IMG/VR virus record: IMGVR_UViG_2537561935_000023
Location: 1-25,825 of that record
Direction: 5' to 3' (one strand)
Length of the DNA stretch: 25,825 bases
DNA from: a virus
Lineage: Duplodnaviria; Heunggongvirae; Uroviricota; Caudoviricetes
Under the pieces are notes generated by a model, which was not told the origin of the DNA, made no database searches, and was given only the letters and a program-made list of their open reading frames with translations. The position numbers and the translations under genes are program-made. Shown piece by piece: positions 1,120-25,825 of this stretch. The stretch's first letter is position 1, and every line of letters begins with the position of its first letter.

Positions 1120-1357
1120 GAGTTAAAATCTCCTTCAGTGCATCATCATCGCCAGTATGAATTTCCGGCGCAATTCCCGTTTCACCAGGTCCAACAAATA
1201 CTGCCCGGCGATCTATCAGCCAACGCCCACGAATTTTTTGTGGTCTTGGAACGATGTATCCTAGTTTTCCGTATTTCACCAGGGTAGTGTTTGTTATTGG
1301 GAGACTGAACCGTTTTGGTTTCCACTCGTCGAGCGTTATCAGGTACTGTTCGCTCAT
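1088..1357 (-). CDS. xis: Excisionase-like small DNA-binding protein (Rac/e14 Xis type), overlapping the int start
   Basis: Minus-strand ORF; first ATG at 1355-1357 with GGAG about 9 nt upstream (the ORF-track start at 1366 is GTG); 3' end overlaps int by about 32 nt as in int-xis operons; motif ...LTLDEW...PRPQKIRGRW...D..AV resembles prophage excisionases. Confidence 0.65.
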   Translation of the reverse strand: MSEQYLITLDEWKPKRFSLPITNTTLVKYGKLGYIVPRPQKIRGRWLIDRRAVFVGPGETGIAPEIHTGDDDALKEILTHVTEATKKQH

Positions 1358-1418
1358 GGCTATCACTCCGGAACGCGCCAGTTGCAGAATACCAACGACA
1401 ACTGGCGACGGTTGAACA

Positions 1419-3890: not shown

Positions 3891-3982
3891 TTTGTTTTAC
3901 CTCATTACAGATTTAAGGGTGAACAAATCCCTGCCATTGCTGGCATATAAGAATGAAAGCGGATGTTTATTACGGAACTGTT

Positions 3983-4174
3983 TTAAAGACCTGCCGGGAT
4001 TTCGTTATTATCCTGGTGAATAACTTTATCGACCGGGTAACAGTTACCGGGAATTTTCTGTTCGGTTGCTGCAGTCATACATTCCTGCATTGTCCTGTGA
4101 ACACTGACTGCAATATCAACTGGCTCTCCGGAAACAAGATAAACTGTCAGAACAAGCGCAAATGCTGAATTCAT
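3983..4174 (-). CDS. Small hypothetical protein (63 aa) with N-terminal hydrophobic signal/anchor segment
   Basis: ATG at 4172-4174 overlaps the stop of the upstream ORF in an ATGA arrangement (translational coupling); N-terminus MNSAFALVLTVYLVSG is hydrophobic; no family recognised. Confidence 0.4.
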   Translation of the reverse strand: MNSAFALVLTVYLVSGEPVDIAVSVHRTMQECMTAATEQKIPGNCYPVDKVIHQDNNEIPAGL

Positions 4175-4359
4175 TGTGCACATCCTTTTGGCATCAGACG
4201 TAAACGAGCCAGCATTGAAACAATGCATATTTTATTTAATAGCTCCCCTTCTTGTTTTCTCTTGTTAATGGCATCTTCAGTAAATACAGGGTTACTGATA
4301 GTGACACCAATTTCAAAACAACCTTCAGACGTATTAACGTTTGGTAATAACGTTTTCAT
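4171..4359 (-). CDS. Small hypothetical early-left protein (62 aa)
   Basis: Minus-strand ORF with GAGGA about 6 nt upstream of the ATG; ATGA stop/start overlap with the downstream small ORF; function unknown. Confidence 0.4.
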   Translation of the reverse strand: MKTLLPNVNTSEGCFEIGVTISNPVFTEDAINKRKQEGELLNKICIVSMLARLRLMPKGCAQ

Positions 4360-4410
4360 TATCGCGTCCTCAACAATGAATTTTGTGATGCAGTGCCTGG
4401 TGCCTCCAGG

Positions 4411-4438
4411 TGACGTTAACCAGTTAACAATTAACGTC
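4411..4438. promoter_or_regulatory. Operator-like palindrome (GACGTTAAC-cagTTAACaa-TTAACGTC) in the divergent control region between leftward early genes and rightward replication genes
   Basis: Near-perfect 9-bp inverted repeat plus a central GTTAAC palindrome, seen directly in sequence; positioned where lambdoid OL/OR operators would lie. Confidence 0.35.
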
Positions 4439-4502
4439 GGATATCCGGATTAGTGATTTCAGGTTGTATCGTGAGATCAGTGATGGAAAAAGTATTACGT
4501 AC

Positions 4503-4685
4503 ATGATCGCCGGGTTAAATAAAGAATATGGCGATGTGGTGGAATCCGGACTGCTTTTTGCAGATCCTGCCGTTGTAGATCGTGAAACTGACGAACTTAT
4601 AGAAAAAGCAATTGCTTTCAAGCTTGCGTATCGACAGCAATACCAACAAAAAGCTGGATGGAATTATGAGTCTTCTTTTTGCTGA
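4503..4685 (+). CDS. Hypothetical small protein (60 aa) overlapping the start of the replication gene
   Basis: ATG at 4503 in frame with ORF 4464..4685; 3' end overlaps the replication gene start (4666) by 20 nt; weak SD; no recognisable motif. Confidence 0.25.
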   Translation: MIAGLNKEYGDVVESGLLFADPAVVDRETDELIEKAIAFKLAYRQQYQQKAGWNYESSFC

Positions 4686-5631
4686 ACGCCCACTGGTTAT
4701 AAACACGCAGCTGGCAATGAAAATTGGCTTAAACGAAGCCATTGTTTTGCAACAACTGCACTACTGGTTGAGAGATACCAACTCCGGCATGGAATGTGAT
4801 GGTGTTCGCTGGATTTATAACACAACGGAACAATGGCTGGAACAGTTCCCATTCTGGTCAGAGTCAACGTTAAAGCGCGCGTTTGCAAGTCTGAAAACGC
4901 TGGGGCTTTTGCGTTGTGAAAAGCTCAATAAATCAAAGCGCGATATGACCAATTTCTACACGATCAACTACGGGAGCGAGCTTTTAGATGGTGGCAAATT
5001 GAGCGAATCCATCGGTTTAAAATGCGCCGCTCCATCAGGTCAAAATGACACGATGGAAGAGGTCAAAATGAAACGCTCCATTGGTTCAAAACGACTCAAT
5101 GTCATCGGGTCAAAATGGCCTGATGATCTTACAGAGAATACAACAGAGATTACTACAGAGAATAAAAAGACTTCTCGTCCGGAAGCTTCGCAACCGGACC
5201 CGCAGACGGTTGAACAGGATTTTTTAACCCGACACCCTGACGCGGTTGTGTTCAGTGCGAAAAAACGCCAGTGGGGCAGCCAGGAAGATTTGGCGTGTGC
5301 GCAGTGGATCTGGGGGCGAATCGTGAGTCTTTACGAGCAGGCCGCCAGCGATGATGGCGAGATTTCGCGACCGAAAGAACCCAACTGGACCGCATGGGCC
5401 AACGACGTGCGCACAATGCGGATGCTGGATGGCAGAACTCACAGACAAATTTGTGAAATGTTTGGTCGGGTGCAGCGGGATCCATTCTGGGTAAAAAATA
5501 TCATGAGTCCGTCAAAGCTTCGCGAAAAATGGGATGAACTGGTTATCCGCCTGGGGCGTTCGTCTGTACAGCGTTGTGTGAATCATATTTCTGAGCCGGA
5601 TACCGAAATTCCGCCGGGCTTCAGGGGGTAA
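4666..5631 (+). CDS. Phage replication initiation protein: N-terminal replisome-organiser-like winged-helix domain and C-terminal DnaT-like (primosomal protein 1) domain
   Basis: First ATG of the frame is 4666 (ORF-track start at 4612 is TTG); N-terminal segment LVINTQLAMKIGLNEAIVLQQLHYWL typical of phage replication proteins; C-terminus ...SEPDTEIPPGFRG matches the DnaT C-terminus (...SEPDSQIPPGFRG) as recalled. Confidence 0.7.
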   Translation: MSLLFAERPLVINTQLAMKIGLNEAIVLQQLHYWLRDTNSGMECDGVRWIYNTTEQWLEQFPFWSESTLKRAFASLKTLGLLRCEKLNKSKRDMTNFYTINYGSELLDGGKLSESIGLKCAAPSGQNDTMEEVKMKRSIGSKRLNVIGSKWPDDLTENTTEITTENKKTSRPEASQPDPQTVEQDFLTRHPDAVVFSAKKRQWGSQEDLACAQWIWGRIVSLYEQAASDDGEISRPKEPNWTAWANDVRTMRMLDGRTHRQICEMFGRVQRDPFWVKNIMSPSKLREKWDELVIRLGRSSVQRCVNHISEPDTEIPPGFRG

Positions 5632-5671
5632 GTGTTAATTTCTGGTCATGAGGTAATTTTCAGGAGGGCTT

Positions 5672-6094
5672 GTGGCAAAAGTTTTTACACAAGAAGAGCG
5701 GGAAAAAATTAAAGGGCAGGTTGTTGAACTCGTACGCCGGAGTGGGCGTGAGACGTTACGGCAACTGGAAGTCAAGACAGGTGCGACAAGATATCTGATG
5801 AGCGTTCTCGCAAGAGAGCTGGTTGCCAGCGGCGATGTATACAACTCTGGTTACGGGTTATTCCCGTCTGAACAGGCGCGTAAGGACTGGCAAAATGCCC
5901 GTAAAAAGCTCTCAAGGGCAAAGCTGAAGGAACCATCTGCGGTTGATCCGGACCTTATCTGGTCATTACCTGACGGAGAAATACGTCGTTACGACAGGCG
6001 TCATAATATGATTTGTACTGAGTGTCGTAAAAGCGAAGTTATGCAGCGCATATTGTCGTTTTATCAGGGGGATGTCCGGTATTTATTGAAGTGA
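5672..6094 (+). CDS. Hypothetical protein (140 aa), possibly DNA-binding/regulatory, downstream of the replication gene
   Basis: GTG start with GGAGG about 5 nt upstream; basic, helix-rich N-terminal half; family not recognised. Confidence 0.5.
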   Translation: MAKVFTQEEREKIKGQVVELVRRSGRETLRQLEVKTGATRYLMSVLARELVASGDVYNSGYGLFPSEQARKDWQNARKKLSRAKLKEPSAVDPDLIWSLPDGEIRRYDRRHNMICTECRKSEVMQRILSFYQGDVRYLLK

Positions 6095-6162
6095 CGAGAT
6101 TAAAGTGCATTAGTTCAGATGCAAATTGACATTTTGTGGCACAGGGTAGAGCTAGCGTGGTT

Positions 6163-6186
6163 GTCCGCTTTGTGCCAAGAGCGGAC
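6163..6186. repeat. Palindromic repeat, Y-type copy 1 (GTCCGCTTTGTGCCAAGAGCGGAC)
   Basis: 7-bp inverted arms GTCCGCT/AGCGGAC; 22 of 24 identical to the copy at 7379-7402; lies just beyond the 3' end of the GIY-YIG gene. Confidence 0.7.
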
Positions 6187-6223
6187 TTTGCAAAATGGGG
6201 GTTATTTCAATCAAAACGTAACG

Positions 6224-7168
6224 TCACAACCAGCCGACGCTCTCTCGCCATTTATAATTAGTAACTTTATCATTTTCGCTTATTTTTTTAGATATAGAGC
6301 GCGGCTCTCTTCCTAGATACTCAGATATTTCTATCGGGGACAAATCAAAATCAACAAGCATGACTCTAAGTTTTTCCATTTCCTTTAAAGTCCAAGGCTT
6401 GCCATAATTTTCATAAAGAGATACCTTATGCTCCCTGATAGTTCGCTTTCTCTGAGTTTCACTTTCCCTCTGAAAAATCTCGCTTTTAAATTGTGAACGG
6501 AACTCTTTACAGAAGTTGTTATCAGTTTTTTTGTTATATAGATTGCTAAAAATAAGCTGGGATGCCGGGTCTAAATCAGGTGTGTTAATAATGAAAACTT
6601 TGACCTTTTCCATATAGGGATATTCAATTTTACCCAATATGCTTAATTGCTTTATATTAAAAAAACCTCTCAAATCAAAAGATTTAATGAGCTTTGATTG
6701 GATTACACTTTCAATCCTGCTTGCATTTAAATAACAGTACTTTGCCATTGGAAGGGCCCATACTACCAGTTGAGGAATATATTTTTCTAATGCAATGCTC
6801 TGCCAATCAGTATCAAAGGTTTGGCTTTTTGCTAGCATGTTTTTCGGCAAATCAGAATACATTGTGGTAGATGCCCATATCTTATAATCATTCGCCAAGG
6901 CTTGATAGTATTTTGTGTGGTTATGAATTTTATAAGCTGACATGAAGCGATAAACGTCTTCGTCGTGACCAGCGTCGTAAATTGTTCGATTTCCTCTAAG
7001 ATAACCGTCGTAATGTTCGGTTATCCTTCTACCTACATTACAACTTACCCCAACGTAAACCACACGACTGAAAAGTCCTTTATGGACAATAAGATAAACT
7101 CCGCTACAGCCAGATTTCCTGGCCTCTGATAGAGAACCTAAAAATCTCCATTCCATAATTAAATCCAT
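6224..7168 (-). CDS. GIY-YIG nuclease-domain protein (314 aa) with a C-terminal putative helix-turn-helix region; AT-rich cargo gene
   Basis: N-terminal GVYLIVHKG...VVYVGVS.NVGRRITEHY matches the GIY-(about 10 aa)-YIG + Arg + Glu nuclease core; C-terminal ...WTLKEMEKL...SPIEISEYLGREPRSISKKI looks HTH-like; codon usage and AT content differ from flanking phage genes. Confidence 0.7.
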   Translation of the reverse strand: MDLIMEWRFLGSLSEARKSGCSGVYLIVHKGLFSRVVYVGVSCNVGRRITEHYDGYLRGNRTIYDAGHDEDVYRFMSAYKIHNHTKYYQALANDYKIWASTTMYSDLPKNMLAKSQTFDTDWQSIALEKYIPQLVVWALPMAKYCYLNASRIESVIQSKLIKSFDLRGFFNIKQLSILGKIEYPYMEKVKVFIINTPDLDPASQLIFSNLYNKKTDNNFCKEFRSQFKSEIFQRESETQRKRTIREHKVSLYENYGKPWTLKEMEKLRVMLVDFDLSPIEISEYLGREPRSISKKISENDKVTNYKWRESVGWL

Positions 7169-7336
7169 AATTATTGCTACTGTTTTTGTTTATCATTATT
7201 TTCGTGAAACTTCAACAATTTTATCCAAAAGCTAAGGGCAAAGACTTATATAATTATACTTGTCATCGTTAGCGATTATATAGAGTAGTGGCGCTGACCT
7301 GCTCCCTGGTGATTCACACAGAATGCTGTTAGTAAT

Positions 7337-7360
7337 GTCCGTTCCTCGCTCTCAGCGGAC
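7337..7360. repeat. Palindromic repeat, X-type copy 1 (GTCCGTTCCTCGCTCTCAGCGGAC)
   Basis: Terminal 5-bp inverted arms GTCCG/CGGAC around an asymmetric 14-bp core; 20 of 24 identical to 11550-11573 and 18 of 24 to 9320-9343. Confidence 0.65.
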
Positions 7361-7378
7361 CTTCAGCTCAGTGATATC

Positions 7379-7402
7379 GTCCGCTCTGTGCAAAGAGCGG
7401 AC
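7379..7402. repeat. Palindromic repeat, Y-type copy 2 (GTCCGCTCTGTGCAAAGAGCGGAC)
   Basis: Perfect 9-bp inverted arms with 6-bp spacer GTGCAA (10 bp including flanking C/G at 7378/7403); sits 18 bp after the X-type copy. Confidence 0.7.
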
Positions 7403-7715
7403 GTTGGTATGCAAGAGCCCTCCAAAAGTTGATGGTTGGTTTGCAGGGGGGCTTAAAGAAACTGCACTTATCAAGTTGAAGTTCTGTATTCAGCGAAATC
7501 GTAGCACTCTGACGATAAGTAACTCCGGTACTCCGCTCTTCGATGAAGAACCAGAGTAATCCCCCCGAAAAACCAGCGCATCAAAATTGGATCTTCAGCG
7601 GTAGCTTATCGGCTATCGGAAGTACAGGTGTGGATTCGTGGTGAATTGCTTTGATAATAAACGATTAATACGGAAAAACGCATTAATCATTTATTAGCTT
7701 TTAGTAAACCACAAT

Positions 7716-15730: not shown

Positions 15731-15947
15731 GTTAGAGTCTTTCAGTCTGCGATGATGGGAAATCCCGGAGTGACTGAAAGACGTTTAAGTTATGAATGAT
15801 CGCTTTTTTTTGCAAAATTGCTGTGCAGAAATACTAACCTTCGGGCAGGCGATCATTCATAAGCACTCTGCTTTTATTCCGATTAACTGTGGGTGGTTTG
15901 TTGGATAGAGTGCTTTCCTTACTGTATATATTGTTTCGCCCGCTTTT

Positions 15948-15972
15948 GCGGGCTTTTCTTTTCAAATCCCTT
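15948..15972 (+). terminator. Rho-independent terminator upstream of the holin-derived ORF
   Basis: GCCCGC-tttt-GCGGGC stem-loop followed by TTTTCTTTT. Confidence 0.55.
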
Positions 15973-16022
15973 TCATTTCTCAGTGTAAAACTACGCCATC
16001 CGTTATTTGCGGAGGTGAGGCT

Positions 16023-18185
16023 ATGAAATCCATGGACAAAATTTCAACGGGCATTGCCTATGGCACCTCCGCAGGCAGTGCTGGCTACTGGTTTTTACAG
16101 CTGCTCGATAAAGTCACGCCCTCACAGTGGGCAGCAATAGGTGTGCTGGGTATCCGCACCGGCGGGCGCGTGCTGGCGGTAAACAGCCAGACCCGGACGC
16201 TGACGCTCGACCGTGAAATCACGCTGCCATCTTCCGGCACCACGCTGATAAGCCTGGTTGACGGGCAGGGGAGTCCGGTCAGCGTGGAGGTTCAGTCCGT
16301 CACCGACGGCGTGAAGGTGAAAGTGAGCCGTGTTCCTGACGGCGTTGCTGAATACAGCGTATGGGGGCTGAAGCTGCCGACGCTGCGCCAGCGCCTGTTC
16401 CGCTGCGTGAGTATCCGTGAGAACGACGACGGCACGTATGCCATCACCGCCGTGCAGCATGTACCGGAAAAAGAGGCCATCGTGGATAACGGGGCGCACT
16501 TTGACGGCGACCAGAGCGGCACGGTAAATGGTGTCACGCCGCCAGCGGTGCAGCACCTGACCGCAGAAGTCACCGCAGACAGCGGGGAATACCAGGTGCT
16601 GGCCCGCTGGGACACGCCGAAGGTGGTGAAGGGCGTGAGCTTCCTGCTTCGCCTGACCGTGGCAGCGGATGACGGCCGTGAGCGGCTGGTCAGCACGGCC
16701 CGGACGACGGAAACCACTTACCGCTTCACACAACTGGCTCTGGGGAACTACAGGCTGACAGTCCGGGCAGTAAATGCGCGGGGGCAGCAGGGCGATCCGG
16801 CGTCGGTATCGTTCCGGATTGCCGCACCGGCAGCGCCGTCGCGGATTGAGCTGACGCCGGGCTATTTTCAGATAACCGCCACGCCGCATCTTGCGGTTTA
16901 TGACCCGACGGTACAGTTTGAGTTCTGGTTCTCGGAAAAACGGATTGCGGATATCAGGCAGGTTGAAACCAGCGCGCGTTATCTTGGTACGGCACTGTAC
17001 TGGATAGCCGCCAGTATCAATATCAAACCGGGCCATGATTATTATTTTTACGTTCGCAGTGTGAACACCGTTGGCAAATCGGCATTCGTGGAGGCTGTCG
17101 GTCAGCCGAGTGATGATGCATCAGGCTATCTGGATTTTTTCAAAGGCGAGATAGGGAAAACCCATCTGGCTCAGGAGCTGTGGACGCAGATTGATAACGG
17201 TCAGCTTGCGCCTGACCTGACTGAAATCAGGACGTCCATAACGGATGTCAGCAATGAAATAACACAGACCGTCAATAAGAAACTGGAAGACCAGAGTGCA
17301 GCGATCCAGCAGATACAGAAGGTTCAGGTTGATACAAATAATAACCTGAACAGCATGTGGGCAGTGAAGCTGCAGCAGATGCAGGACGGACGCCTTTATA
17401 TTGCGGGTATCGGTGCCGGTATTGAGAACACCCCTGACGGCATGCAGAGTCAGGTGCTGCTGGCAGCAGACAGGATTGCGATGATTAATCCTGCGAATGG
17501 CAACACAAAGCCGATGTTTGTTGGTCAGGGCGATCAGATATTCATGAATGAAGTGTTCCTGAAACGCCTGACGGCCCCCACCATTACCAGCGGCGGTAAT
17601 CCTCCGGCATTTTCCCTGACATCAGACGGGAGACTGACGGCGAAAAATGCGGATATCAGTGGCAGTGTGAATGCGAACTCAGGAACGCTCAACAATGTCA
17701 CGATTAACCAGAACTGTACGATTAAGGGCATGCTGGAGGCGACCCAGGTCAGAGGAGATTTCGTTAAAGCTGTATCAAAAGCCTTCCCGAAAAAAGTCGG
17801 TACGTGGGGTAACACGGAAACACCAAACGGTACGGTTACAGTAACCATCAGCGATGATCATAACTTTGACCGCCAGATTATTATTCCGCCCATTATTTTT
17901 AACGGTATAGCGTATGACGATCCGGGGAGCGGAAATAACCCAGGAGGCACGCGATACACGGGTTATGGTTTTGAAGTTCGCAAAAACGGCGTATTAATCG
18001 CATCCAGAGAAACTAAAGGGGCCATTCCCGGTAGTTACAGTGCAGTTATTGATATGCCGAGTGGCAGGGGAAGCGTCACTCTGGAGTTTAAGATTTTCCA
18101 GAAAGGCAATCAGGGGGCAGGCAATATCACCGACTGTACGGTGATTGTGACCAAAAAAGCGGCTTCCGGCATCAGTATTCGTTGA
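16023..18185 (+). CDS. Chimeric ORF: N-terminal about 43 aa of a phage 21-type pinholin fused in frame to the C-terminal about 677 aa of a lambda J-type host-specificity protein (deletion remnant)
   Basis: N-terminus [43 protein letters not shown] matches the S21 pinholin N-terminus as recalled; from about nt 16152 the protein is collinear with the lambda J C-terminal half (e.g. ...[40 protein letters not shown]...); GGAGGTGAGG SD. Confidence 0.8.
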
Positions 18186-18255
18186 AATATTTATAACCCC
18201 AATAAAGGGCGTCAGGAATGACGCCTTTTTTATTGCAGAAAAGCGAGAGGTAATT

Positions 18256-18651
18256 ATGCGTAAAGTTTGTGCAGCAATTTTGTCCGCAGCCATTTGTCTG
18301 GCCGTATCCGGTGCGCCTGCATGGGCGTCTGAACATCAGTCCACGCTGAGCGCGGGGTATCTTCATGCCCGGACCAACGTTCCCGGCAGTGATGATCTGA
18401 ACGGGATTAACGTGAAATATCGTTATGAGTTTACGGATACGCTGGGGCTGGTGACGTCATTCAGCTATGCAGGAGACAAGAATCGCCAGCTGACCCGTTA
18501 CAGCGATACCCGCTGGCATGAAGATTCCGTGCGTAACCGCTGGTTCAGCGTGATGGCGGGGCCGTCTGTGCGCGTGAATGAATGGTTCAGCGCGTATGCG
18601 ATGGTACTGGTGGAAGAACTATCGAGCAAGCACGTGCGAACTTGCGGGTAA
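18256..18651 (+). pseudogene. lom: 3'-truncated lom (Lom/Ail/PagC-family outer-membrane protein) remnant
   Basis: Signal peptide plus about 115 aa collinear with lambda Lom up to ...SAYAM (nt about 18603); the frame then runs into unrelated tail-fibre-derived sequence and stops. Confidence 0.75.
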
Positions 18652-20357
18652 TGTATGAGCAAAAAGCTGGCCTTGCTAATACTGACCTAAACACCCTTAC
18701 CGGTGAATATTCTGGTTTCTATCAACAACCAACGAGCGCTTACGCAACAGAAGAGTTAAATTACCCAATCGGTCTGGCGGGCGCTTTAATAGTGCTCCAA
18801 ACGAGAGCCAACACTGCTTCTTCCTGCGTTCAGGTGTACCACCCTTATAATAATCCGGGAATTACTTATAGACGAATATATGAAGGAGGTAGCGGTACCT
18901 GGTCTGAATGGAAGAGAGATGTATCAACAGAAAGGGTTGAAGAGGGAAAAGAAACAACTTACGTATATTCTACGTATTCTTCAGGCGCACCACGCTTACA
19001 GGTTTCCAAATCTGGTTTGTGGGGTTGTCATAATGGCACTGGCTGGTTGCCATTAGCTGTTGGGCAAGGAGGTACAGGTGCGACAACAGTAGAAGATGCG
19101 CGAAACAACTTAAGTCTTGGCGAAAGTAGCGCAGTTAAATTTAAAAACCTTACTTTAACCGAAGCGCTCGACACGACATTAGGACTGCTTACAAAAACAG
19201 GACGAGACTGGAACGCTCAGCATACTGATAACGTCGACAAATTTAGACCAATTGCAGGCAGTACAAACGGCCCGGCAGGCTCTATGGTTCTTGGCGGCAT
19301 TCATGTTCAATTTAGTAAAAATTATGCTGTGCAGTTCGGAGGCCGCAATTCCGGTTTTTGGGGAAGAACAATTGAAAATGGAACGACGCAGGAATGGAAG
19401 AAATTACTAACAGTAGACGATCTCAATTCATCTACCGATCTTGCTGTCAGGTCATTAACCACATCTAACCCGATAAAATCTGGCGGAGGGCGGATTGATG
19501 TCCTTGGAAGCACGTCAGACTATAGCAAAATGGATTGCTTTGTACGTGGGTTTGATAGCACCGGTAATTCTCTCGCGTGGGCGTTGGGTTCATCAGTCGG
19601 CGTAAGTAAGATGCTGTCGCTAAAAAATTTCTTTAGCGGAGCTGAGATACTGCTAAATGGTAATGACGGCGCGGTTCAACTCAAAACAGGTGCTGTTAAC
19701 GGTGCTAAAGCGCAGGCGCTCACTATCAACAAGGATGAGGTTAACTCAACTGTTGATTTAACTCTTACAAAACAAACAGGGACTGGCAATCGTTTTGTTT
19801 TACAGAACTTAGGTAATACAGAACTACCATTTGCTGTCAAGGTGTGGGGTTCAGGTGATCGACAAAACGTTTTTGAGGTTGGAACGTCTGCCGCGTATCT
19901 GTTTTATGCTCAAAAAACATCGTCAGGTCAGCTGTTTGATGTAAACGGTGCTATTAACTGTACAACACTGAATCAGTTATCAGACCGCGAGCTGAAAGAC
20001 AATATTCAGATTATCAGTGACGCAACCGAAGCTATCCGTAAAATGAACGGGTACACCTACACACTTAAGGAAAACGGACTGCCTTACGCTGGTGTTATTG
20101 CACAGGAAGCAATGGAGGCAATACCGGAAGCGGTAGGCTCATTCACTCATTACGGTAAAGAGTTGCAGGGACCAACGGTTGACGGCAATGAATTACGTGA
20201 AGAAACACGTTATCTGAATGTTGACTACGCCGCCGTGACGGGCTTACTTGTTCAGGTCGCCCGTGAAACAGATGATCGCGTTACCGCGCTGGAAGAAGAA
20301 AACGCAGAATTAAAACAAAGATTATCTGCAATTGAGGCGGCGCTTGCCTCTAAATAA
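18604..20357 (+). pseudogene. 5'-truncated side tail fibre gene with C-terminal intramolecular-chaperone (S74-type) domain
   Basis: Tail-fibre motifs GGTGATTVEDARNNL and TIEQARANL; C-terminal ...SDRELKDNIQ...MNGYTYTLKENG...VIAQEA...LEEENAELKQRLSAIEAALASK typical of auto-cleaving chaperone domains; no native start, and the only ATG (18582) lies in lom-derived sequence. Confidence 0.7.
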
Positions 20358-20361
20358 TATT

Positions 20362-20386
20362 AAGGGGCTGTGCGCCCCGTTTTATT
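20362..20386 (+). terminator. Rho-independent terminator after the tail fibre remnant
   Basis: GGGGC-tgtgc-GCCCC followed by GTTTTATT. Confidence 0.55.
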
Positions 20387-20393
20387 GGGTAGG

Positions 20394-20687
20394 ATGAAAA
20401 TGGGTATAACACCTTTCCTTCATGCACTTTGTGCTGTGGCTGCGCAGATACTGGTGGGGCTTTTTACCGGAAACTGGGTTTACGGAGCGATAGCCAGTTG
20501 TACGTTCTTCATTGCGGGCGAACACACCCAAGCATAATATCGCTGGATTGAAATGTTCGGGCATGGCAAGCGGATTAACATGCCGTGGTGGGGCGGTTTT
20601 GATCCACGCGCATGGGATGTGGCAAGCCTGATGGATTTTGCTGTGCCGATGGTAGCGTGTCTTCTGATCTGGCTGTTGATCCGTTGA
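20394..20687 (+). pseudogene. Small hydrophobic protein gene interrupted by an in-frame TAA (about 45 + 50 codons)
   Basis: MKMGITPFLHALCAVAAQILVGLFTGNWVYGAIASCTFFIAGEHTQA-stop-YRWIEMFGHGKRINMPWWGGFDPRAWDVASLMDFAVPMVACLLIWLLIR; both halves share one frame and hydrophobic character. Confidence 0.45.
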
Positions 20688-20696
20688 ACATAAAAA

Positions 20697-20730
20697 GCCG
20701 CAGCAACTTGCCATGGCAGGATACTGCGGC
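20697..20730. terminator. Hairpin between the convergent pseudogene (+) and RT gene (-); likely terminator for the RT operon
   Basis: GCCGCAG ... CTGCGGC 7-bp stem enclosing the palindrome TGCCATGGCA; on the minus strand it is followed by TTTTTA. Confidence 0.45.
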
Positions 20731-20794
20731 TGGTTTGTGAGTTTAAATAGTGTGTTTATTGCGATATATTTTAATGACTTAATGGATTACATAT

Positions 20795-22165
20795 CTATGA
20801 TATTCCTGAAATATCCTCTTCAAGCTCTTTTACTGATTTCGCAATTTTAAATTTAAACTTCCTCTCTATTTCACTATTGCTAAGTTTTTTTTCCTTCTCT
20901 TTACCTATCCACATAGAAACAAGTTCTCGTTTCTGAGATATATGTAGATTGTCAAAGTTAGGTATGTATTTAAAAGTCTCCGCTCTACCTCTGCGGAGTT
21001 CATAGAAAGTTTTAATCAAAGATTTTGGTTTTATTTCTGATGAAAGGCCGAATCGGCGGATAAGATTATTGATAGTATGATTAACAGAGCGAAGTTGAGC
21101 TGTTGAGGTTATTTGTGAGAAGTACGATACCCATCCCAATCGTTTACCTTCAAACACACATCCCGTAATTCTGAGATTTAGTTTCCACTGACAATATGCA
21201 ACAGCTCGTTCTTTATCACGCTTACTTTTAGCTTGTAGTAGAGCGTGCCTATATGCAGTAAAAATTTTTGCTAAGGATGACTCAAATCTAAGAATGCTCT
21301 CATGTTTTATCAATAATTCTCGATTTTCTATGTGGTATCCCAAAAAGTTAAAACTTTCATCCAAACTGCCTACTTTGGATTTTGAGTTCTCTTCATTTAA
21401 TGGATGTGGGTTTAAATTTAATGATTGAAGCTTATCAATGATATGAGAAGCTATTTTTGTTGCTTGATATTTTGGTGTTAAAATAAGAATGTCATCAACG
21501 TATCGCATGTACCATATGTCATGCATTTTATTGATTTCATCATCGAAATTAGATAGTGATATTTCAGCTAAAATGTTTGATATCGCTAATCCCTGAGGTA
21601 CTCCTCTGGTATTATTAGGGATACCTTTGCTTCCTGTGGTTCCACTTACAGTAGGCACGATTAATGATGATGTTATTAACTGTCTAATTTCTTTTTTTCT
21701 AATTTTATTTTTTATTGCATTAATTATCAATTTATGTTCAATTGAAGGATAGAAACTTTTAAGATCTATTTTTGCATATTCAGCATATAGACTGTTGTTT
21801 AATGCTTCTTTCAATGAGTCAATTACTGTATGTGGTAGTTTTAATCTGGACTTAGGATATATTTCCGTAAGGCATTCACAGAGAGCTCTAAGAGTAATTC
21901 TGTCCCTAGCAGTTGGTATGGAAATCTGTCTGGGTGTAGAGTTAGCGCCTTTAGATATTAATTTTTCTTTATATGCTGTAAATTTGTAATTGCCAGAATT
22001 AACCTTTTCAAAAATGAAAGTGATCTCATTTTTTATTGTCAAATCAAGTTTTGATGGGCGAATCCGATCTATGCCAATCGCTCCTGATTCTTTGATTTTT
22101 TCAGAGTATACTTTTAGAAGATTTTTTTTCGAGAATGACTTTTTAAAAATTCTGCTTGCAGTCAT
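20795..22165 (-). CDS. Reverse transcriptase (456 aa), defence-type/retron-like, with about 200-aa C-terminal extension
   Basis: RT motifs read directly: R.ISIPTARDRITLRAL (motifs 1-2), KIDLKSFYPSIEH (motif A), GVPQGLAISNILAEI (motif B'), YMRYVDDILIL (YxDD motif C), LNLNPHPLNEENSKSKVG...FLGYHI (motif D/E); AT-rich; first ATG at 22163-22165 (ORF-track start 22171 is TTG); 23-nt overlap with the upstream gene. Confidence 0.85.
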   Translation of the reverse strand: MTASRIFKKSFSKKNLLKVYSEKIKESGAIGIDRIRPSKLDLTIKNEITFIFEKVNSGNYKFTAYKEKLISKGANSTPRQISIPTARDRITLRALCECLTEIYPKSRLKLPHTVIDSLKEALNNSLYAEYAKIDLKSFYPSIEHKLIINAIKNKIRKKEIRQLITSSLIVPTVSGTTGSKGIPNNTRGVPQGLAISNILAEISLSNFDDEINKMHDIWYMRYVDDILILTPKYQATKIASHIIDKLQSLNLNPHPLNEENSKSKVGSLDESFNFLGYHIENRELLIKHESILRFESSLAKIFTAYRHALLQAKSKRDKERAVAYCQWKLNLRITGCVFEGKRLGWVSYFSQITSTAQLRSVNHTINNLIRRFGLSSEIKPKSLIKTFYELRRGRAETFKYIPNFDNLHISQKRELVSMWIGKEKEKKLSNSEIERKFKFKIAKSVKELEEDISGIS

Positions 22166-22694
22166 AGTCAATCCAAAGATATATTAATGGGAGTATATAA
22201 AGTGCGGCAGTAATAAATATTCGAAGTAATATCCATAAAATAACAATTATTTTTTCTTTTTGTGTGGGGATCCTCGTCTTAAGTCCAACTTGAGTTACCC
22301 TTGAAATTTTATCATCTATGTCACGGTGATTCTCAACCTCATTGAGCAAATTAAAATATTTTTCTTTCTGTTCAAGAGATAACTGTTGACTGGTGGTAAT
22401 GTCAAAATAGAGTCGCTGTAGTGCAATATAATTCCTTCTCATGGCTATTGCTCGACCACGAAAATCTAGGTTAGATACGATCAGAGAAATACCCAGTAGA
22501 GCCACTGAAAGTATCGCCGCAACGACATCTGTATTATCTCCTAGAACCTTTGGAAATCGCAACGTTACAATTGAAAGTACCGCACTCAATATAGCATACC
22601 AAACGAGGATAAATTGAGAGTGTTTTTCAAGCCATTCTAGTCGATGGTGCGCTTGGATACGTGCTTTATATGTAAACCAAATATTGTCATGCAT
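22143..22694 (-). CDS. Small membrane protein (183 aa), SLATT-like, with an N-terminal two-helix hairpin and a C-terminal TM segment; putative effector partner of the RT
   Basis: Hydrophobic helices FILVWYAILSAVLSIVTL, VVAAILSVALLGISLIVSNL and IIVILWILLRIFITAALYILPLIYLWI; AGGA SD 7 nt upstream of ATG; 3' end overlaps RT start; SLATT assignment is inference from topology and context. Confidence 0.7.
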   Translation of the reverse strand: MHDNIWFTYKARIQAHHRLEWLEKHSQFILVWYAILSAVLSIVTLRFPKVLGDNTDVVAAILSVALLGISLIVSNLDFRGRAIAMRRNYIALQRLYFDITTSQQLSLEQKEKYFNLLNEVENHRDIDDKISRVTQVGLKTRIPTQKEKIIVILWILLRIFITAALYILPLIYLWIDYDCKQNF

Positions 22695-22699
22695 AAAAG

Positions 22700-22900
22700 A
22701 TCCTTTTTAAAAGCGGAAGGGGCAGGATATATTGGAACCGTTGAACATCCTGCCCGGCAGGATCAGTGAGCATAAGCTCAACAGTAAAATATTACTGTTC
22801 ATTATCAGAGCCGCCCTTGCATGCGCAAGAGGAAAAACCTGCCCCATCCCTTTGAATTATTACAATTTAATGATCTTAAAGTCAATACAAGTGAATGGTG
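22700..22900 (-). ncRNA. Candidate structured non-coding RNA/leader upstream of the SLATT-RT operon
   Basis: No ORF; dense nested inverted repeats: GGGCAGGAT (22720-22728) / ATCCTGCCC (22747-22755) / GGCAGGAT (22757-22764), GGGGCAGG (22719-22726) vs CCTGCCCC (22838-22845), ACAGTA-aaatat-TACTGT (22781-22798), CTTGC-atgc-GCAAG (22816-22829). Confidence 0.3.
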
Positions 22901-22916
22901 TCCAGAGATGATGAAC

Positions 22917-23165
22917 TTAATGAACAAACCACTCGTCAGCAGACTCCCAGGTATCTTTCAGAGTCTCCTGAACAAAAGTTTTAGCTGAATCTTTATCAGC
23001 GGTGCGCGTAACAGAAAGGCCATCGTTGCTGGTGGCTTTTACGATCACTTCTACATCGTCATAACGTTTACTGATGCGTCGGGTTAATTCTTCCTTTAAC
23101 GCATCCACAGCACCGGTTGGCATTTTAGTCATTTTTTCTTTGGCTATGCAGATTTCAATACGCAT
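22917..23165 (-). CDS. dinI: DinI-family SOS protein (82 aa)
   Basis: MRIEICIAK...AVDAL..EL.RRI...LSV......D......[15 protein letters not shown] collinear with E. coli DinI as recalled; GGGGA SD. Confidence 0.85.
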
Positions 23166-23177
23166 AAAAGTCCCCTA

Positions 23178-23225
23178 CACTGTATTTGTATACAGTATTA
23201 TTTTTAACTGTATGGATAAACAGTG
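23178..23225 (-). promoter_or_regulatory. Two tandem LexA (SOS) boxes in the dinI-like promoter
   Basis: Box 1 at 23178-23197 caCTGTatttgtatACAGta (17 of 20 to consensus TACTGTATATATATACAGTA); box 2 at 23206-23225 aaCTGTatggataaACAGtg (CTGT-N8-ACAG). Confidence 0.75.
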
Positions 23226-24323
23226 TCAAGAGGTCTTATTTCTGCTCCTTTGGAGTTCTTCAAAACGATTATGTAAAGATTTCGGATACAGTTCGGTATA
23301 TACCTGCCATAGCACGTTTAATGAACGATGCCCTGTAACCTGAGCGACTTCCTCAATACTAAAACCAGCCTCAAATAAGCGACTTGCCCCTTCTCTACGC
23401 AAATCATGGTATCTCAGATCTTTAATACCTAATTTGCTTCTTACCCTCTGAAATCCTGCGGTAACAGAAGTGCTGTTATATGGAAAAATGAATTCTGATT
23501 TTTTGGGTTGTCGCTGGACGATATCCCAGGCTTCCCCAAGCAAGGCAACTTTCATATGGTTGCCTTCCTTTTTACGTGGATCTTTCCTGTCTCTTACTAG
23601 TATAGATTTTTGTTCCTGGTCGAGATCTTCCCATCGTAACCGGCATACTTCTCCGATTCGCATACAGGACCACACAGAAAATTTGAGGATATCAACGAAC
23701 GGAATTTTTGAGCATTTATGAGTAGATCGTTGTTGAAGGCCTTCAATGAGCATGTTCAGTTCATCAGATGCTGGTCTACGATTACGACGGTTTGATTTAC
23801 CAATCAAACCGAGTTTAAGTAGATATGGACGAGCGCTTTTCGCCGGGTTTGATGTGTAATTGATTCCGTATACAGGTTTTGCCGCATCCAGAACACTGCC
23901 AAGATAACTAACATCGTGGCTGACTGTTGCTGGGCCTGCACCAGCGTTGTTTCTTAGCCTGCAATGTTCAATTACGTCATTTTCTGTCAGTTCAGATAGT
24001 TTGATCGCGGAGATGTCACTATCCATAAGCAGTTCCAGCACATATCTTTTAGTACGGCCTGCTTTACCTCCGGCATTTGGGTCATTTAAATATTTGTGTA
24101 GTAAGTCACGGACTGTAAGTCCGTCAACAGCATTTGATGATGGAATGCCATATAGATCTAATTCCATCACTTTCTGTGCGCCCCATGTTTTGGCATGAGC
24201 ATGTTTAGGGAATGTTTTGCTTTCCCTGTAAGTGATAACACCTTTTTCTTTGATAATCACATTACAGCGATAGCGTGGTGTGCCATCGGATTTTAGTCGT
24301 TTCTCTATGTTATAGTACGCCAT
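23226..24323 (-). CDS. int: Tyrosine integrase (365 aa) adjacent to and divergent from dusA: dusA-associated integrase type
   Basis: C-terminal tyrosine-recombinase motifs (...RYHDLRREGASRL...VTGHRSL..L.VY); GAGG SD; 5' end about 90 bp from the dusA reading frame. Confidence 0.85.
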   Translation of the reverse strand: MAYYNIEKRLKSDGTPRYRCNVIIKEKGVITYRESKTFPKHAHAKTWGAQKVMELDLYGIPSSNAVDGLTVRDLLHKYLNDPNAGGKAGRTKRYVLELLMDSDISAIKLSELTENDVIEHCRLRNNAGAGPATVSHDVSYLGSVLDAAKPVYGINYTSNPAKSARPYLLKLGLIGKSNRRNRRPASDELNMLIEGLQQRSTHKCSKIPFVDILKFSVWSCMRIGEVCRLRWEDLDQEQKSILVRDRKDPRKKEGNHMKVALLGEAWDIVQRQPKKSEFIFPYNSTSVTAGFQRVRSKLGIKDLRYHDLRREGASRLFEAGFSIEEVAQVTGHRSLNVLWQVYTELYPKSLHNRFEELQRSRNKTS

Positions 24324-24456
24324 TACACGACCTCGTTATTTCGGGTTCCCATAAAGCGTGGGAACCTGTGCGGGAACCTAACGCGAGAAAAATAGCCTGA
24401 AATGTTCAAAAATGCACGATAATCCTGAAACACAGAAAACTAATCAAACCAGCGTG

Positions 24457-25449
24457 ATGCCTGAAAAAACTGGCGCTTACTGGAGTTCTCGGTTTAGCAT
24501 TGCTCCTATGCTCGACTGGACGGACAGACATTGCCGCTATTTCTTGCGTCTGCTTTCCCGCAATACGTTGCTGTATACCGAAATGGTGACCACAGGGGCG
24601 ATTATTCACGGTAAAGGTGATTACCTGGCGTACAGTGAAGAAGAACATCCGGTAGCGTTGCAACTCGGCGGTAGCGATCCGGCGGCGCTGGCACAGTGTG
24701 CGAAGCTGGCAGAAGCGCGTGGATATGATGAGATCAACCTGAATGTCGGCTGCCCGTCTGACCGGGTGCAGAACGGCATGTTTGGTGCGTGTCTGATGGG
24801 TAATGCGCAGCTGGTTGCCGACTGCGTGAAAGCGATGCGCGATGTGGTGTCGATTCCAGTGACGGTGAAAACGCGTATTGGCATCGATGACCAGGACAGC
24901 TATGAATTTCTCTGCGATTTCATCAACACCGTTTCCGGCAAAGGCGAGTGTGAGATGTTTATCATCCACGCACGTAAAGCCTGGCTTTCGGGGTTAAGCC
25001 CGAAAGAAAACCGTGAAATCCCGCCGCTCGATTATCCGCGTGTGTATCAACTGAAGCGTGACTTTCCGCATCTGACAATGTCGATTAACGGTGGTATCAA
25101 GTCGCTGGAAGAGGCCAAAGCACACCTGCAACATATGGATGGCGTGATGGTCGGGCGCGAGGCGTATCAGAATCCGGGTATTCTGGCGGCGGTAGACCGG
25201 GAGATCTTTGGTTCCTCGGATACCGATGCCGATCCAGTGGCGGTAGTGCGCGCCATGTATCCGTACATTGAGCGTGAACTCAGCCAGGGGACGTATCTCG
25301 GCCATATTCCCCGGCATATGTTGGGCTTGTTCCAGGGTATTCCTGGCGCGCGGCAGTGGCGGCGTTATTTAAGTGAAAATGCCCATAAAGCGGGTGCAGA
25401 CATTAATGTGCTGGAACACGCGCTCAAACTGGTGGCGGATAAGCGTTAA
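24457..25449 (+). CDS. dusA: tRNA-dihydrouridine synthase A (DusA), 330 aa from ATG 24457; the open frame extends upstream to 24412 into element-derived sequence
   Basis: Near-identical over most of its length to E. coli DusA as recalled (…[17 protein letters not shown]…NLNVGCP…HARKAWL…); the N-terminal about 25 residues differ from K-12 as recalled. Confidence 0.9.
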
Positions 25450-25531
25450 CTTTTCACCAAAAAGTAGTCAAATTCACCACGCCCTGCGCACCGTCGCGGG
25501 GCATTTTGCTGTTAAATCAATAGATTATTTT

Positions 25532-25546
25532 TGGCATGATTCTTGT
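25532..25546 (+). promoter_or_regulatory. Candidate sigma-54 promoter of pspG (TGGCATG-N4-TTGT)
   Basis: GG/-24 and TTGT/-12-like elements with correct spacing about 37 nt upstream of the pspG ATG; pspG is a PspF/sigma-54 regulon member by established knowledge. Confidence 0.4.
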
Positions 25547-25582
25547 AATGCCAGCAAGAGATTTCATATTTGGGAGAGCATC

Positions 25583-25825
25583 ATGCTGGAACTACTTTTT
25601 GTGTTTGGCTTTTTTGTCATGCTGATGGTCACCGGCGTTTCGTTGCTGGGCATTATCGCCGCGCTGGTTGTGGCGACGGCCATTATGTTCCTCGGCGGTA
25701 TGCTGGCATTGATGATTAAGTTGCTGCCGTGGTTACTACTGGCGATTGCGGTGGTGTGGGTTATTAAGGCGATTAAAGCACCAAAAGTGCCGAAATATCA
25801 GCGTTATGACCGCTGGCGTTACTAA
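25583..25825 (+). CDS. pspG: Phage shock protein G (PspG), 80 aa
   Basis: MLELLFVFGFFVMLMVTGVSLLGIIAALVVATAIMFLGGMLALMIKLLPWLLLAIAVVWVIKAIKAPKVPKYQRYDRWRY matches E. coli PspG as recalled; canonical position downstream of dusA. Confidence 0.9.
   Translation: MLELLFVFGFFVMLMVTGVSLLGIIAALVVATAIMFLGGMLALMIKLLPWLLLAIAVVWVIKAIKAPKVPKYQRYDRWRY

Follow-up and report, generated by a model that had tools for sequence, protein, structure and literature searches.

The integrase-proximal end of a dusA-integrated prophage in a draft contig probably mis-joined through prophage repeats

The stretch of viral DNA analyzed here (25,825 nt; IMG/VR record IMGVR_UViG_2537561935_000023; referred to below as the window) ends on the right in chromosomal sequence. 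Its last gene, pspG (positions 25583 to 25825, plus strand; Pfam PspG match, annotated as such in identical sequence), has its stop codon at the window end and lies downstream of dusA (24412 to 25449, plus strand; Pfam Dus, E = 4e-104), an intact open reading frame (ORF) of 345 aa in which the frame is restored. Divergent from dusA is the intact gene of a 365-aa tyrosine integrase (23226 to 24323, minus strand; Pfam PF00589 Phage_integrase, E = 8e-21); the two start codons, at 24323 and 24412, leave a gap of 88 bp. The neighboring genes, also on the minus strand, encode a DinI-like protein (22917 to 23165; Pfam DinI, E = 1e-19), a SLATT protein (22143 to 22694; PADLOC RTasSLATT, E = 1.5e-56), and a UG17-class reverse transcriptase (20795 to 22171; PADLOC RT_UG17, E = 1e-158, covering profile positions 1 to 429 of 429). 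The integrase-dinI pair is conserved and is found likewise in Cronobacter and Serratia lysogens. The reverse transcriptase and SLATT genes (20795 to 22694) are element cargo with 100% identity to dusA elements in many genomes, and the two form a candidate DRT defense pair as judged from their profile matches. The stretch comprising the DinI gene, the integrase gene, dusA, and pspG was present in 731 of 5,426 complete Escherichia coli genomes (i.e., approximately one in seven), and positions 22911 to 25825 had at most one mismatch to APEC O78 (NC_020163).

The left end carries genes of a lambdoid prophage of the type integrated at potC. These are int (1 to 1119; PF09003 Arm-DNA-bind_1, E = 4e-21; PF00589, E = 4e-18), xis (1088 to 1357), which overlaps int and is annotated as an excisionase gene in relatives, and an exonuclease gene (1419 to 3890), all on the minus strand. 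Together with ydfD and the 3' part of dicB, they make up the segment from 1 to 4248 (minus strand), and the first 4,287 nt of the window had a single mismatch to potC prophages in eight draft genomes. All parts of a lambda-type module (i.e., arm-binding and catalytic domains, an overlapping xis gene, and an att site beside int) were found at this end. An earlier note on this DNA had proposed a lambda-type integrase at 1 to 1119 with its attL outside the window; this was borne out, the attL side lying just outside, beside potC. A truncated third integrase gene (9377 to 9985) had been overlooked.

The middle of the window (4288 to 18601, plus strand) is the interior of a Qin-type defective prophage and is identical to the rspB-ydfJ prophage of AR434 (CP029122). 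It contains the 5' part of dicB, the PD-T7-1 island, hok/sok, rem, a DUF968 gene, rusA, Q, tRNA genes, a holin'-'J fusion, and lom'. From 4249 to approximately 19000, there were no mismatches to the AR434 prophage, and strain 042 carries this prophage as well. The window holds the interior only; the flanks and the 426-aa integrase of the Qin-type prophages of AR434 and 042 are absent from it. The remainder, from approximately 18.6 to 19.2 kb up to 24507, belongs to the dusA element and represents its integrase-proximal (attR) end.

The earlier note had been unable to locate an internal boundary; two could be placed. The left switch falls in dicB (4171 to 4359) at 4249 to 4287 (minus strand), with sequence of the potC-prophage type to its left and of the Qin type to its right; mismatches to Qin cease after 4248, and mismatches to the potC prophages begin to cluster at 4288. 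The right switch, from Qin-type to dusA-element-type sequence, falls at 18602 to 19214 (plus strand) in a tail fiber ORF (18651 to 20357). This interval was derived from the pattern of single nucleotide polymorphisms (SNPs) against both AR434 loci and was widened to its present limits because site 18755 is G in an ordinary dusA element and is thus not diagnostic. On sequence identity, the window is therefore a mosaic of three prophages (i.e., a potC-site prophage, a Qin-type prophage, and a dusA element). Two of them, the Qin (Kim) type and the potC prophage, lack their outer ends in the window and are fused with each other and with the dusA element.

The source of the window is contig AQCL01000169.1, which is 100% identical to it and in which the order is mfd...potD-potC, the window, and qorA-dnaB-alr-tyrB; potC lies 167 bp beyond window position 1 and the left integrase gene. 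The two switch intervals correspond to positions 92488 to 92526 and 106841 to 107453 of this contig (assembly GCA_000354615.2). The 568-aa version of the tail fiber protein (from an internal ATG) and the integrase variant both matched this contig, and an exact look-up of the 591-aa tail fiber ORF returned no match. In K-12 DH10B, potC (1.238 Mb) and dusA (4.359 Mb) are 3.1 Mb apart, and the orientation of the flanks is as in the contig. Among 5,426 complete E. coli genomes, there was no place at which the whole window or the tail fiber junction was covered to at least 80%, and neither hybrid junction was present. The diagnostic junction pattern (a Qin-type SNP, a gap, and a dusA-element SNP) was likewise found neither in species-representative genomes nor in viral contigs, and its one match in metagenomes was the ordinary dusA element with G at 18755. 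Each of the examined assemblies of potC prophages with the same exonuclease retained its own phage interior after dicB, and the tail fiber repeat is the point at which draft contigs of relatives end. Because potC and dusA are so far apart and in the same orientation, and because neither junction exists in any complete genome, we infer that AQCL01000169.1 is most probably an assembly chimera. Positions 1 to approximately 4270 derive from the lambdoid prophage at potC, and those from approximately 4270 to approximately 18.6 to 19.2 kb from the Qin-type defective prophage whose normal home is between rspB and ydfJ. The switches lie in stretches common to these prophages, so that the contig leads from potC directly to dusA; the likeliest cause of this join would be a draft assembly made chimeric by prophage repeats. 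The combined reading, a dusA-integrated prophage end together with mis-joining of the draft contig at prophage repeats, has in our judgment a high probability. Contigs mis-joined in this manner can mimic "composite islands."

It is unlikely, although conceivable, that the mosaic is real, i.e., that RecA-mediated recombination among three co-resident prophages (at potC, rspB-ydfJ, and dusA) gave rise to a hybrid prophage that truly links potC to dusA, for example where a tandem duplication of 1.56 Mb is joined or within some more complex rearrangement. Co-resident lambdoid prophages commonly recombine, and the resulting switch points are equally clean, so that sequence alone does not separate a real recombinant from a chimera. 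Both switches are in homologous sequence, as recombination requires, and every segment matches a known prophage at 99.96 to 100% identity, which would make any such event recent. The left switch has only 39 bp of exact identity to the reference parents, which is short for a repeat-induced mis-join and speaks against a chimera; in the 440 bp around it, the parents differ by only approximately 2.5%. The contig has also been reported for three samples, which were perhaps not independent assemblies. Against these points, the flanks of potC and dusA are in direct orientation, and a single crossover would entail either the loss of 3.1 Mb of the chromosome, an interval that on the K-12 map we take to include oriC, or else a very large duplication. 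A real mosaic would moreover need two independent crossovers, and the junction searches and the potC prophages described above, which, with an identical exonuclease, all continue into their own interiors, count against it as well. As a separate matter, an inversion between the Qin prophage and the dusA element was ruled out as the origin of the hybrid, since the left flank is potC and not rspB and the flanks are direct.

The earlier note had offered either two tandem elements or a composite. The composite part stood, with three lineages instead of two. A tandem arrangement of two complete integrative elements, each bounded by att sites of its own and with a boundary between the tail fiber and reverse transcriptase genes, is scarcely credible: although each window end does hold one full-length integrase gene and the two differ in architecture, this is contradicted by the lack of a dusA att copy inside the window, by the onset of dusA-element identity within the tail fiber ORF and not at an att site, by the contiguity of the tail fiber-to-integrase stretch in hundreds of dusA elements, and by potC as the site of the left integrase. 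The window should not be taken to show tandem or interacting integrases.

At the right end, the 5' end of dusA (codons 1 to 32; 24412 to 24507, plus strand) is supplied by the element. In these 96 nt, 18 positions differ from K-12 and 10 of the 32 codons change residue, compared with 11 differences in the remaining 934 nt (Fisher P = 9e-13). The chromosomal remainder of the gene (24516 to 25449, plus strand) is 98.8% identical to K-12. A three-way alignment of attR (window), attB (K-12), and attL (AR434, whose attL copy keeps the K-12-type sequence) placed the crossover core, ATGCTCGA, at 24508 to 24515 (plus strand), immediately after the last 5' difference to K-12 dusA, in codon 32 (24507). 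Around the core is a 21-bp semiconserved att sequence (24502 to 24522, plus strand) over the APMLDW codons, in which attL and attR agree at 16 of 21 positions; the site overlaps the APM(M/L)DW codons of published Acinetobacter baumannii att sequences (PMC4482086, supplementary figure S4). These data uphold the proposal of a tyrosine integrase divergent from and adjacent to dusA (88 bp apart, with PF00589 and Dus matches) and of a dusA-associated element that supplies a replacement 5' end, for which the alignment, the differences to K-12, and the integrase family all speak. The comparison with an uninterrupted locus that the earlier note had called for (K-12 attB) showed that the divergence is limited to the 96 nt that precede the att core. 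Its claim that the first approximately 25 codons differ from the host version was right as to the difference and wrong as to its extent, 32 codons having been replaced. It had also held that the lack of a dusA direct repeat anywhere in the element would refute its reading. By blastn-short and fuzzy matching, neither the dusA 5' sequence nor the att core recurs in the window, and no attL is found in it, but only because the left end of the element is missing there; in AR434 and APEC O78, a dusA' copy lies 24 kb and 15 kb upstream, respectively.

More than one dusA 5' allele does exist in E. coli. Nonetheless, ordinary allelic variation with an integrase adjacent by chance has next to no probability: besides the confinement of the differences to the 96 nt before the core, the displaced K-12-type fragment sits at attL of related genomes and ends at the same core, and the same integrase-dusA layout recurs at 54 of 80 loci in many genera. 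The attL/attR/attB alignment contradicts ordinary divergence of the dusA 5' end.

On integration, a phage attP would have recombined with the chromosomal site over the dusA APMLDW codons at the core ATGCTCGA, splitting dusA. A defective lambdoid prophage would have entered in this way by means of the dusA-associated tyrosine integrase. The codons 1 to 32 and the upstream sequence carried by the element rebuild a full-length dusA ORF with an altered N terminus at attR, and the displaced dusA 5' fragment would remain at attL, the far end of the element. Both attL and RdfN, the PrtN-like excision factor, belong to this far end, which the window does not include.

The 365-aa integrase belongs to the dusA-associated integrase (DAI) family. 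It has the complete catalytic domain in a full-length ORF that characterizes a DAI, and the candidate catalytic residues (R222, H306, R309, H332, and Y342) were invariant in an alignment of 14 sequences; the enzyme is presumably active. It was 99% identical to a cluster of 1,437 sequences. NCBIfam had no specific model for it and gave only weak Xer/integron matches far below the cutoff. We examined 80 homologues with 52 to 99% identity, from Escherichia to Vibrio, Shewanella, Colwellia, and Aeromonas, and at the 54 loci mentioned above, from other species, dusA lay divergently approximately 90 bp upstream of the integrase gene. At several of the others, the flank was too short or the integrase was at another site, and the latter loci agree with the noncognate sites reported previously (PMC4482086).

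Integration into dusA with replacement of its 5' end is already known (2015 and 2021) and has been dissected experimentally. Farrugia (2015) described the DAI family with its 21-bp att repeats and the replaced dusA 5' end and gave prophage examples from E. coli (PMC4482086), the latter including "phage lysogen" islands of 28 to 47 kb in strains 101-1, 3003, and B171 (Table S1, PMC4482086). Those islands share with the window element the divergent integrase, the element-derived dusA 5' end, the 21-bp repeats over APM(L/M)DW codons, and prophage cargo. The N terminus MAYYNIEKRLKSDGTPRYRC resembles that of the S. baltica OS155 member (MAYSIQKREKADGTVRHRC) as drawn in Fig. S2 of that study (PMC4482086), the figure being the basis of comparison. 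Most of the islands carry a PrtN-family gene (64% have a PrtN-like gene, which is hence not a strict criterion; PMC4482086), whereas the window has the attR half only, the half with attL and PrtN/RdfN being replaced by sequence of other prophages. Durand (2021) identified RdfN as the excision factor and reported that an element gives E. coli dusA a promoter and an altered N terminus (PMC8409611). IMEVchUSA3 and other SGI1-like Vibrio elements have the same target site and integrase family; their integration into dusA in E. coli was shown experimentally, and their excision requires the PrtN-like RdfN (PMC8409611). They differ in being IncC-mobilizable islands under AcaCD, whereas the window element is a defective lambdoid prophage with no rdfN in the window. 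A tblastn search with the AR434 PrtN-family protein as the query found no RdfN/PrtN-like gene in the window. Because there is no attL nearby, excision as a circle would not be expected from the window arrangement. The finding as first given, for an element of approximately one in seven complete E. coli genomes, adds nothing new.

The closest complete relatives are the elements of AR434 (24 kb) and APEC O78 (15 kb), prophage remnants with 99.96 to 100% identity to the window from 18602 and 19196, respectively, through pspG. Both have the same integrase, DinI, SLATT, reverse transcriptase, and tail fiber genes. They differ from the window in keeping, on the left, the repressor region, the Panacea and PrtN genes, and attL, where a dusA' pseudogene adjoins the PrtN-family gene. 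APEC O78 further differs in that IS2 lies between the SLATT gene and dinI and that the reverse transcriptase gene is split.

The "host version" of dusA against which the earlier note had made its comparison proved unusable as a baseline, the K-12 dusA 5' end belonging itself to the element-supplied class. This property of the K-12 start may be a new observation. Two types of dusA 5' end, mutually exclusive and exhaustive, were found in complete genomes (1,123 with the short native form and 4,303 with the other, out of 5,426); they differ by a replacement of 133 bp versus 1,686 bp, the right edge of which is the att site. The K-12 start is of the fixed 32-codon, MH.N-initiated form seen in 15 of 15 Enterobacterales lysogens, and its DNA is 81 to 84% identical to element copies in E. 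coli, Kosakonia, Pluralibacter, and Phytobacter. The long dusA form adjoins an integrase gene in Cronobacter and Serratia, whose empty loci have the short form. K-12 also retains a weak, collinear remnant of integrase codons 1 to 10. A B2-type dusA' fragment beside zur, which would be the fossil attL, was not found in K-12. From these observations, it appears likely that the K-12-type 5' end (79% of complete E. coli genomes) is the fossil attR of an ancient dusA-targeting element whose integrase was later lost. The ancient element would have replaced the native dusA start and upstream region, only phylogroup-B2-like genomes (21%) would keep the native short start, and the window element would be a second-generation integrant at this core, by which the fossil 5' end was displaced to attL. 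K-12 dusA is a treacherous reference, since it is apparently element derived as well. If so, the standard laboratory strain would owe its DusA promoter and N terminus to a former phage, and one att core would have been reused over evolutionary time, visibly within one species.

The intergenic region between the integrase gene and dusA (24324 to 24411) is borne by the element, on the arm side of attR, and has no homology to the K-12 or B2 upstream sequence. dusA may be expressed from this element sequence; a simple promoter and terminator scan of 24200 to 24560 detected neither, with no sigma-70 consensus in the 88-bp intergenic region. The region contains three repeats of 7 to 8 bp (GGGTTCCC at 24343 to 24350 and GGGAACC at 24360 to 24366 and 24372 to 24378). 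The same repeat architecture, with different sequences, recurs in other genera, exact 6-mers being present at 16 of 51 loci versus 0.1 expected from shuffles.

The integrase ORF (365 aa; 23226-24323, minus strand; Phage_integrase domain, E = 8e-21) and dusA (24412-25449, plus strand; Dus domain, E = 4e-104), after which pspG comes next, are divergent neighbours, as the earlier note had described, and are separated by 88 bp. We aligned three sequences: the window (attR), the empty site of K-12 DH10B (attB), and the far end (attL) of a near-identical element in Escherichia coli AR434 (CP029122). The attL sequence matched K-12 exactly as far as ...CCAATGCTCGA and diverged beyond. Upstream of dusA, attR was unrelated to K-12; over the initial 96 nt of dusA the two were approximately 82% similar, and from ATGCTCGACTGG on they were identical. 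The common core was ATGCTCGA (24508-24515), and attL and attR agreed at 16 of 21 positions in the 21-bp stretch enclosing it. Codons 1 to 32 of dusA differed from K-12 at 18 of 96 nt (10 of 32 aa), versus 11 of 934 nt farther downstream in dusA (Fisher p = 9e-13). Judged from this alignment pattern, dusA codons 1 to 32 were supplied by the element; the replacement N-terminus proposed earlier was thus borne out, and its extent, first put at about 25 codons, was corrected to 32. The att site overlaps the APM(L/M)DW codons, like published Acinetobacter att sequences.

Searches across the window found neither a second copy of the dusA 5' sequence, which the earlier note had proposed seeking, nor a PrtN/RdfN homologue. 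In AR434 and APEC O78 (NC_020163), a dusA' pseudogene (i.e., the repeat sought) bounds the same element 24 kb and 15 kb upstream, respectively, and is adjoined by a PrtN-family gene. Just upstream of the integrase start, 24343-24378 contains three 7- to 8-bp repeats (GGGTTCCC ... GGGAACC ... GGGAACC); the first is inverted, and the other two are direct copies with a 12-nt spacing. This layout, approximately 20 to 60 nt upstream of the integrase start, is kept across genera as the repeat sequence changes (loci L025, L028, L034, L044, L063, L075, L100, and others). Exact 6-mer repeats were present in 16 of 51 loci (0.1 in shuffles). These repeats are candidate arm-type or operator sites.

The integrase had 1,535 relatives at an E value of 1e-20 or better, and an alignment of 14 of them retrieved 80 loci in species-representative genomes. 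The integrase had dusA divergent approximately 90 bp upstream in 54 of these loci, with integrase identities from 99% (Escherichia) to 52% (Aeromonas); Vibrio, Shewanella, and Colwellia were also represented. The integrase belongs to the DusA-associated integrase family, whose islands have a replaced dusA 5' end, 21-bp repeats, and circular excision and carry a PrtN homologue in 64% of cases, with E. coli prophages among the examples (Farrugia et al. 2015, PMC4482086). The excision factor is RdfN, a PrtN homologue, and in E. coli such an element alters the N-terminus and provides dusA with a new promoter (Durand et al. 2021, PMC8409611). Since the family and its effects on the dusA promoter and N-terminus are already published, the integration mechanism is known; the dusA reading is right, yet textbook for this family. 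The window shows the anatomy, from which integrase activity may be inferred. The DinI-int-dusA-pspG stretch was detected in 731 of 5,426 complete E. coli genomes. A DinI-like gene (22917-23165) directly follows the dusA-targeting integrase, as in the Cronobacter (L107, 1505-1753) and Serratia (L109, 1276-1768) lysogens, the latter having two DinI-like copies; int-dinI looks like a conserved module.

The only point here that is possibly new concerns K-12-type genomes. In B2-type strains, zur is only 155 bp from a dusA of 331 aa whose start (22 residues) is unrelated to that of K-12; the two differ by a replacement of 1,686 bp (K-12) versus 133 bp (B2) with its right edge at the att site (compared regions: window, 24412-24507; K-12 locus L006, 2885-3112; B2 locus L106, 3369-3520). 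The two types are exclusive and partition the 5,426 genomes exactly (K-12 type, 4,303; B2 type, 1,123). Across 120 enterobacterial DusA clusters, N-terminal length was bimodal: a short, genus-specific group with 12 or 17 residues ahead of APMLDW and a long group with exactly 30, mostly with an MH.N start. Each of the 15 Enterobacterales lysogen loci inspected had the 30-residue form. Cronobacter sakazakii and Serratia liquefaciens have both forms, the long one beside dinI and an integrase of 365 aa, the short one in empty loci. The B2-type start is also short and resembles such empty loci in other genera. The K-12 dusA locus has no integrase, and its dusA start is the fixed 32-codon MH.N form supplied by dusA-targeting elements, with 81 to 84% DNA identity to element copies of E. 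coli, Kosakonia, Pluralibacter, and Phytobacter versus 33% to the B2 sequence. On the basis of these results, the K-12-type start is probably a fossil attR of an older integration whose integrase was lost. A weak collinear match to the first integrase codons in K-12 (E = 0.6 and E = 13) is only suggestive of a remnant. A nonexhaustive literature search found no mention of this start as a fossil integration.

A second, lambda-type integrase with an arm-binding domain does lie at the far left (1-1119, minus strand), as reported earlier. Of the two arrangements then offered, tandem elements or a composite with an unlocated boundary, the composite stood, with three segments and both boundaries now located. 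Positions 1-4287 matched potC-adjacent prophages of eight draft genomes (1 mismatch), 4249 to approximately 19000 matched the Qin-type defective prophage (rspB-ydfJ) of AR434 (and 042; 0 mismatches), and 18602-25825 matched the AR434 dusA element and chromosome (3 mismatches). The switches fall at 4249-4287 in dicB and at 18602-19214 in a tail-fibre gene. The middle segment bears characteristic Qin deletions and the holin'-'J and lom'-'stf fusions, and is thus that very element and not merely a relative.

The window is 100% identical to positions 88240-114064 of AQCL01000169.1 (GCA_000354615.2; 127,695 bp), the sole contig matching the integrase variant and the hybrid tail-fibre ORF in an exact look-up. 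Both window edges are stop codons (lambda-type integrase at 1, pspG at 25825), so the window was cut at gene boundaries of the annotated contig. The start of potC lies within 167 bp past the lambda-type integrase (contig locus L104, 11120-11285), placing that phage at the potB/potC junction. The contig order is mfd...potD-potC, window, qorA-dnaB-alr-tyrB; in K-12 DH10B, potC (1.238 Mb) and dusA (4.359 Mb) are far apart, with both flanks oriented as in the contig. Relatives' draft contigs end within the tail-fibre repeat, and assemblies with an identical exonuclease gene run on, at potC, into their own phage interior. A mis-join via prophage repeats is very probably why two integrases share one window. 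The main rival, a genuine recombinant, is unlikely: a single chromosome carrying the potC-dusA junction would lack the intervening 3.1 Mb or require a 1.56-Mb tandem duplication, and neither junction was present among the 5,426 complete genomes. An inversion cannot yield the potC-dusA junction. The mosaic is thus most probably an assembly chimera.

Near the dusA-targeting integrase, a UG17-class reverse transcriptase and a SLATT protein (20795-22694, minus strand; PADLOC E = 1e-158 and 1.5e-56) form a candidate defence pair carried as cargo; APEC O78 has a split reverse transcriptase, and there IS2 separates the SLATT gene from dinI. Within the Qin-type segment, a low-GC island (36 to 43%; 6224-11325) carries a homologue of PD-T7-1 (7716-9065; E = 7e-157) together with a third, truncated integrase (tyrosine recombinase, 9377-9985) and two unknown ORFs. 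A hokD/sok type I toxin-antitoxin locus lies at 11885-12209 (Rfam sok, 111.7 bits). In one ORF (16023-18185), residues 1 to 43 of a P21-type holin run into tail-tip protein J, of which the C-terminal two-thirds remain; this fusion marks a deletion that removed the lysis and head genes and most tail genes. At 18256-18651, lom is truncated, and its junction with the tail-fibre gene, at 18602, falls in the middle of the latter. ARAGORN predicted four tRNAs (Met-CAT, Lys, Thr, and Gly) at 15421-15730, downstream of the Q antiterminator; three are backed by Rfam and by RefSeq, which annotates the identical sequence in AR434 and calls the CAT one tRNA-Ile, and the Lys call (15498-15574) is doubtful.
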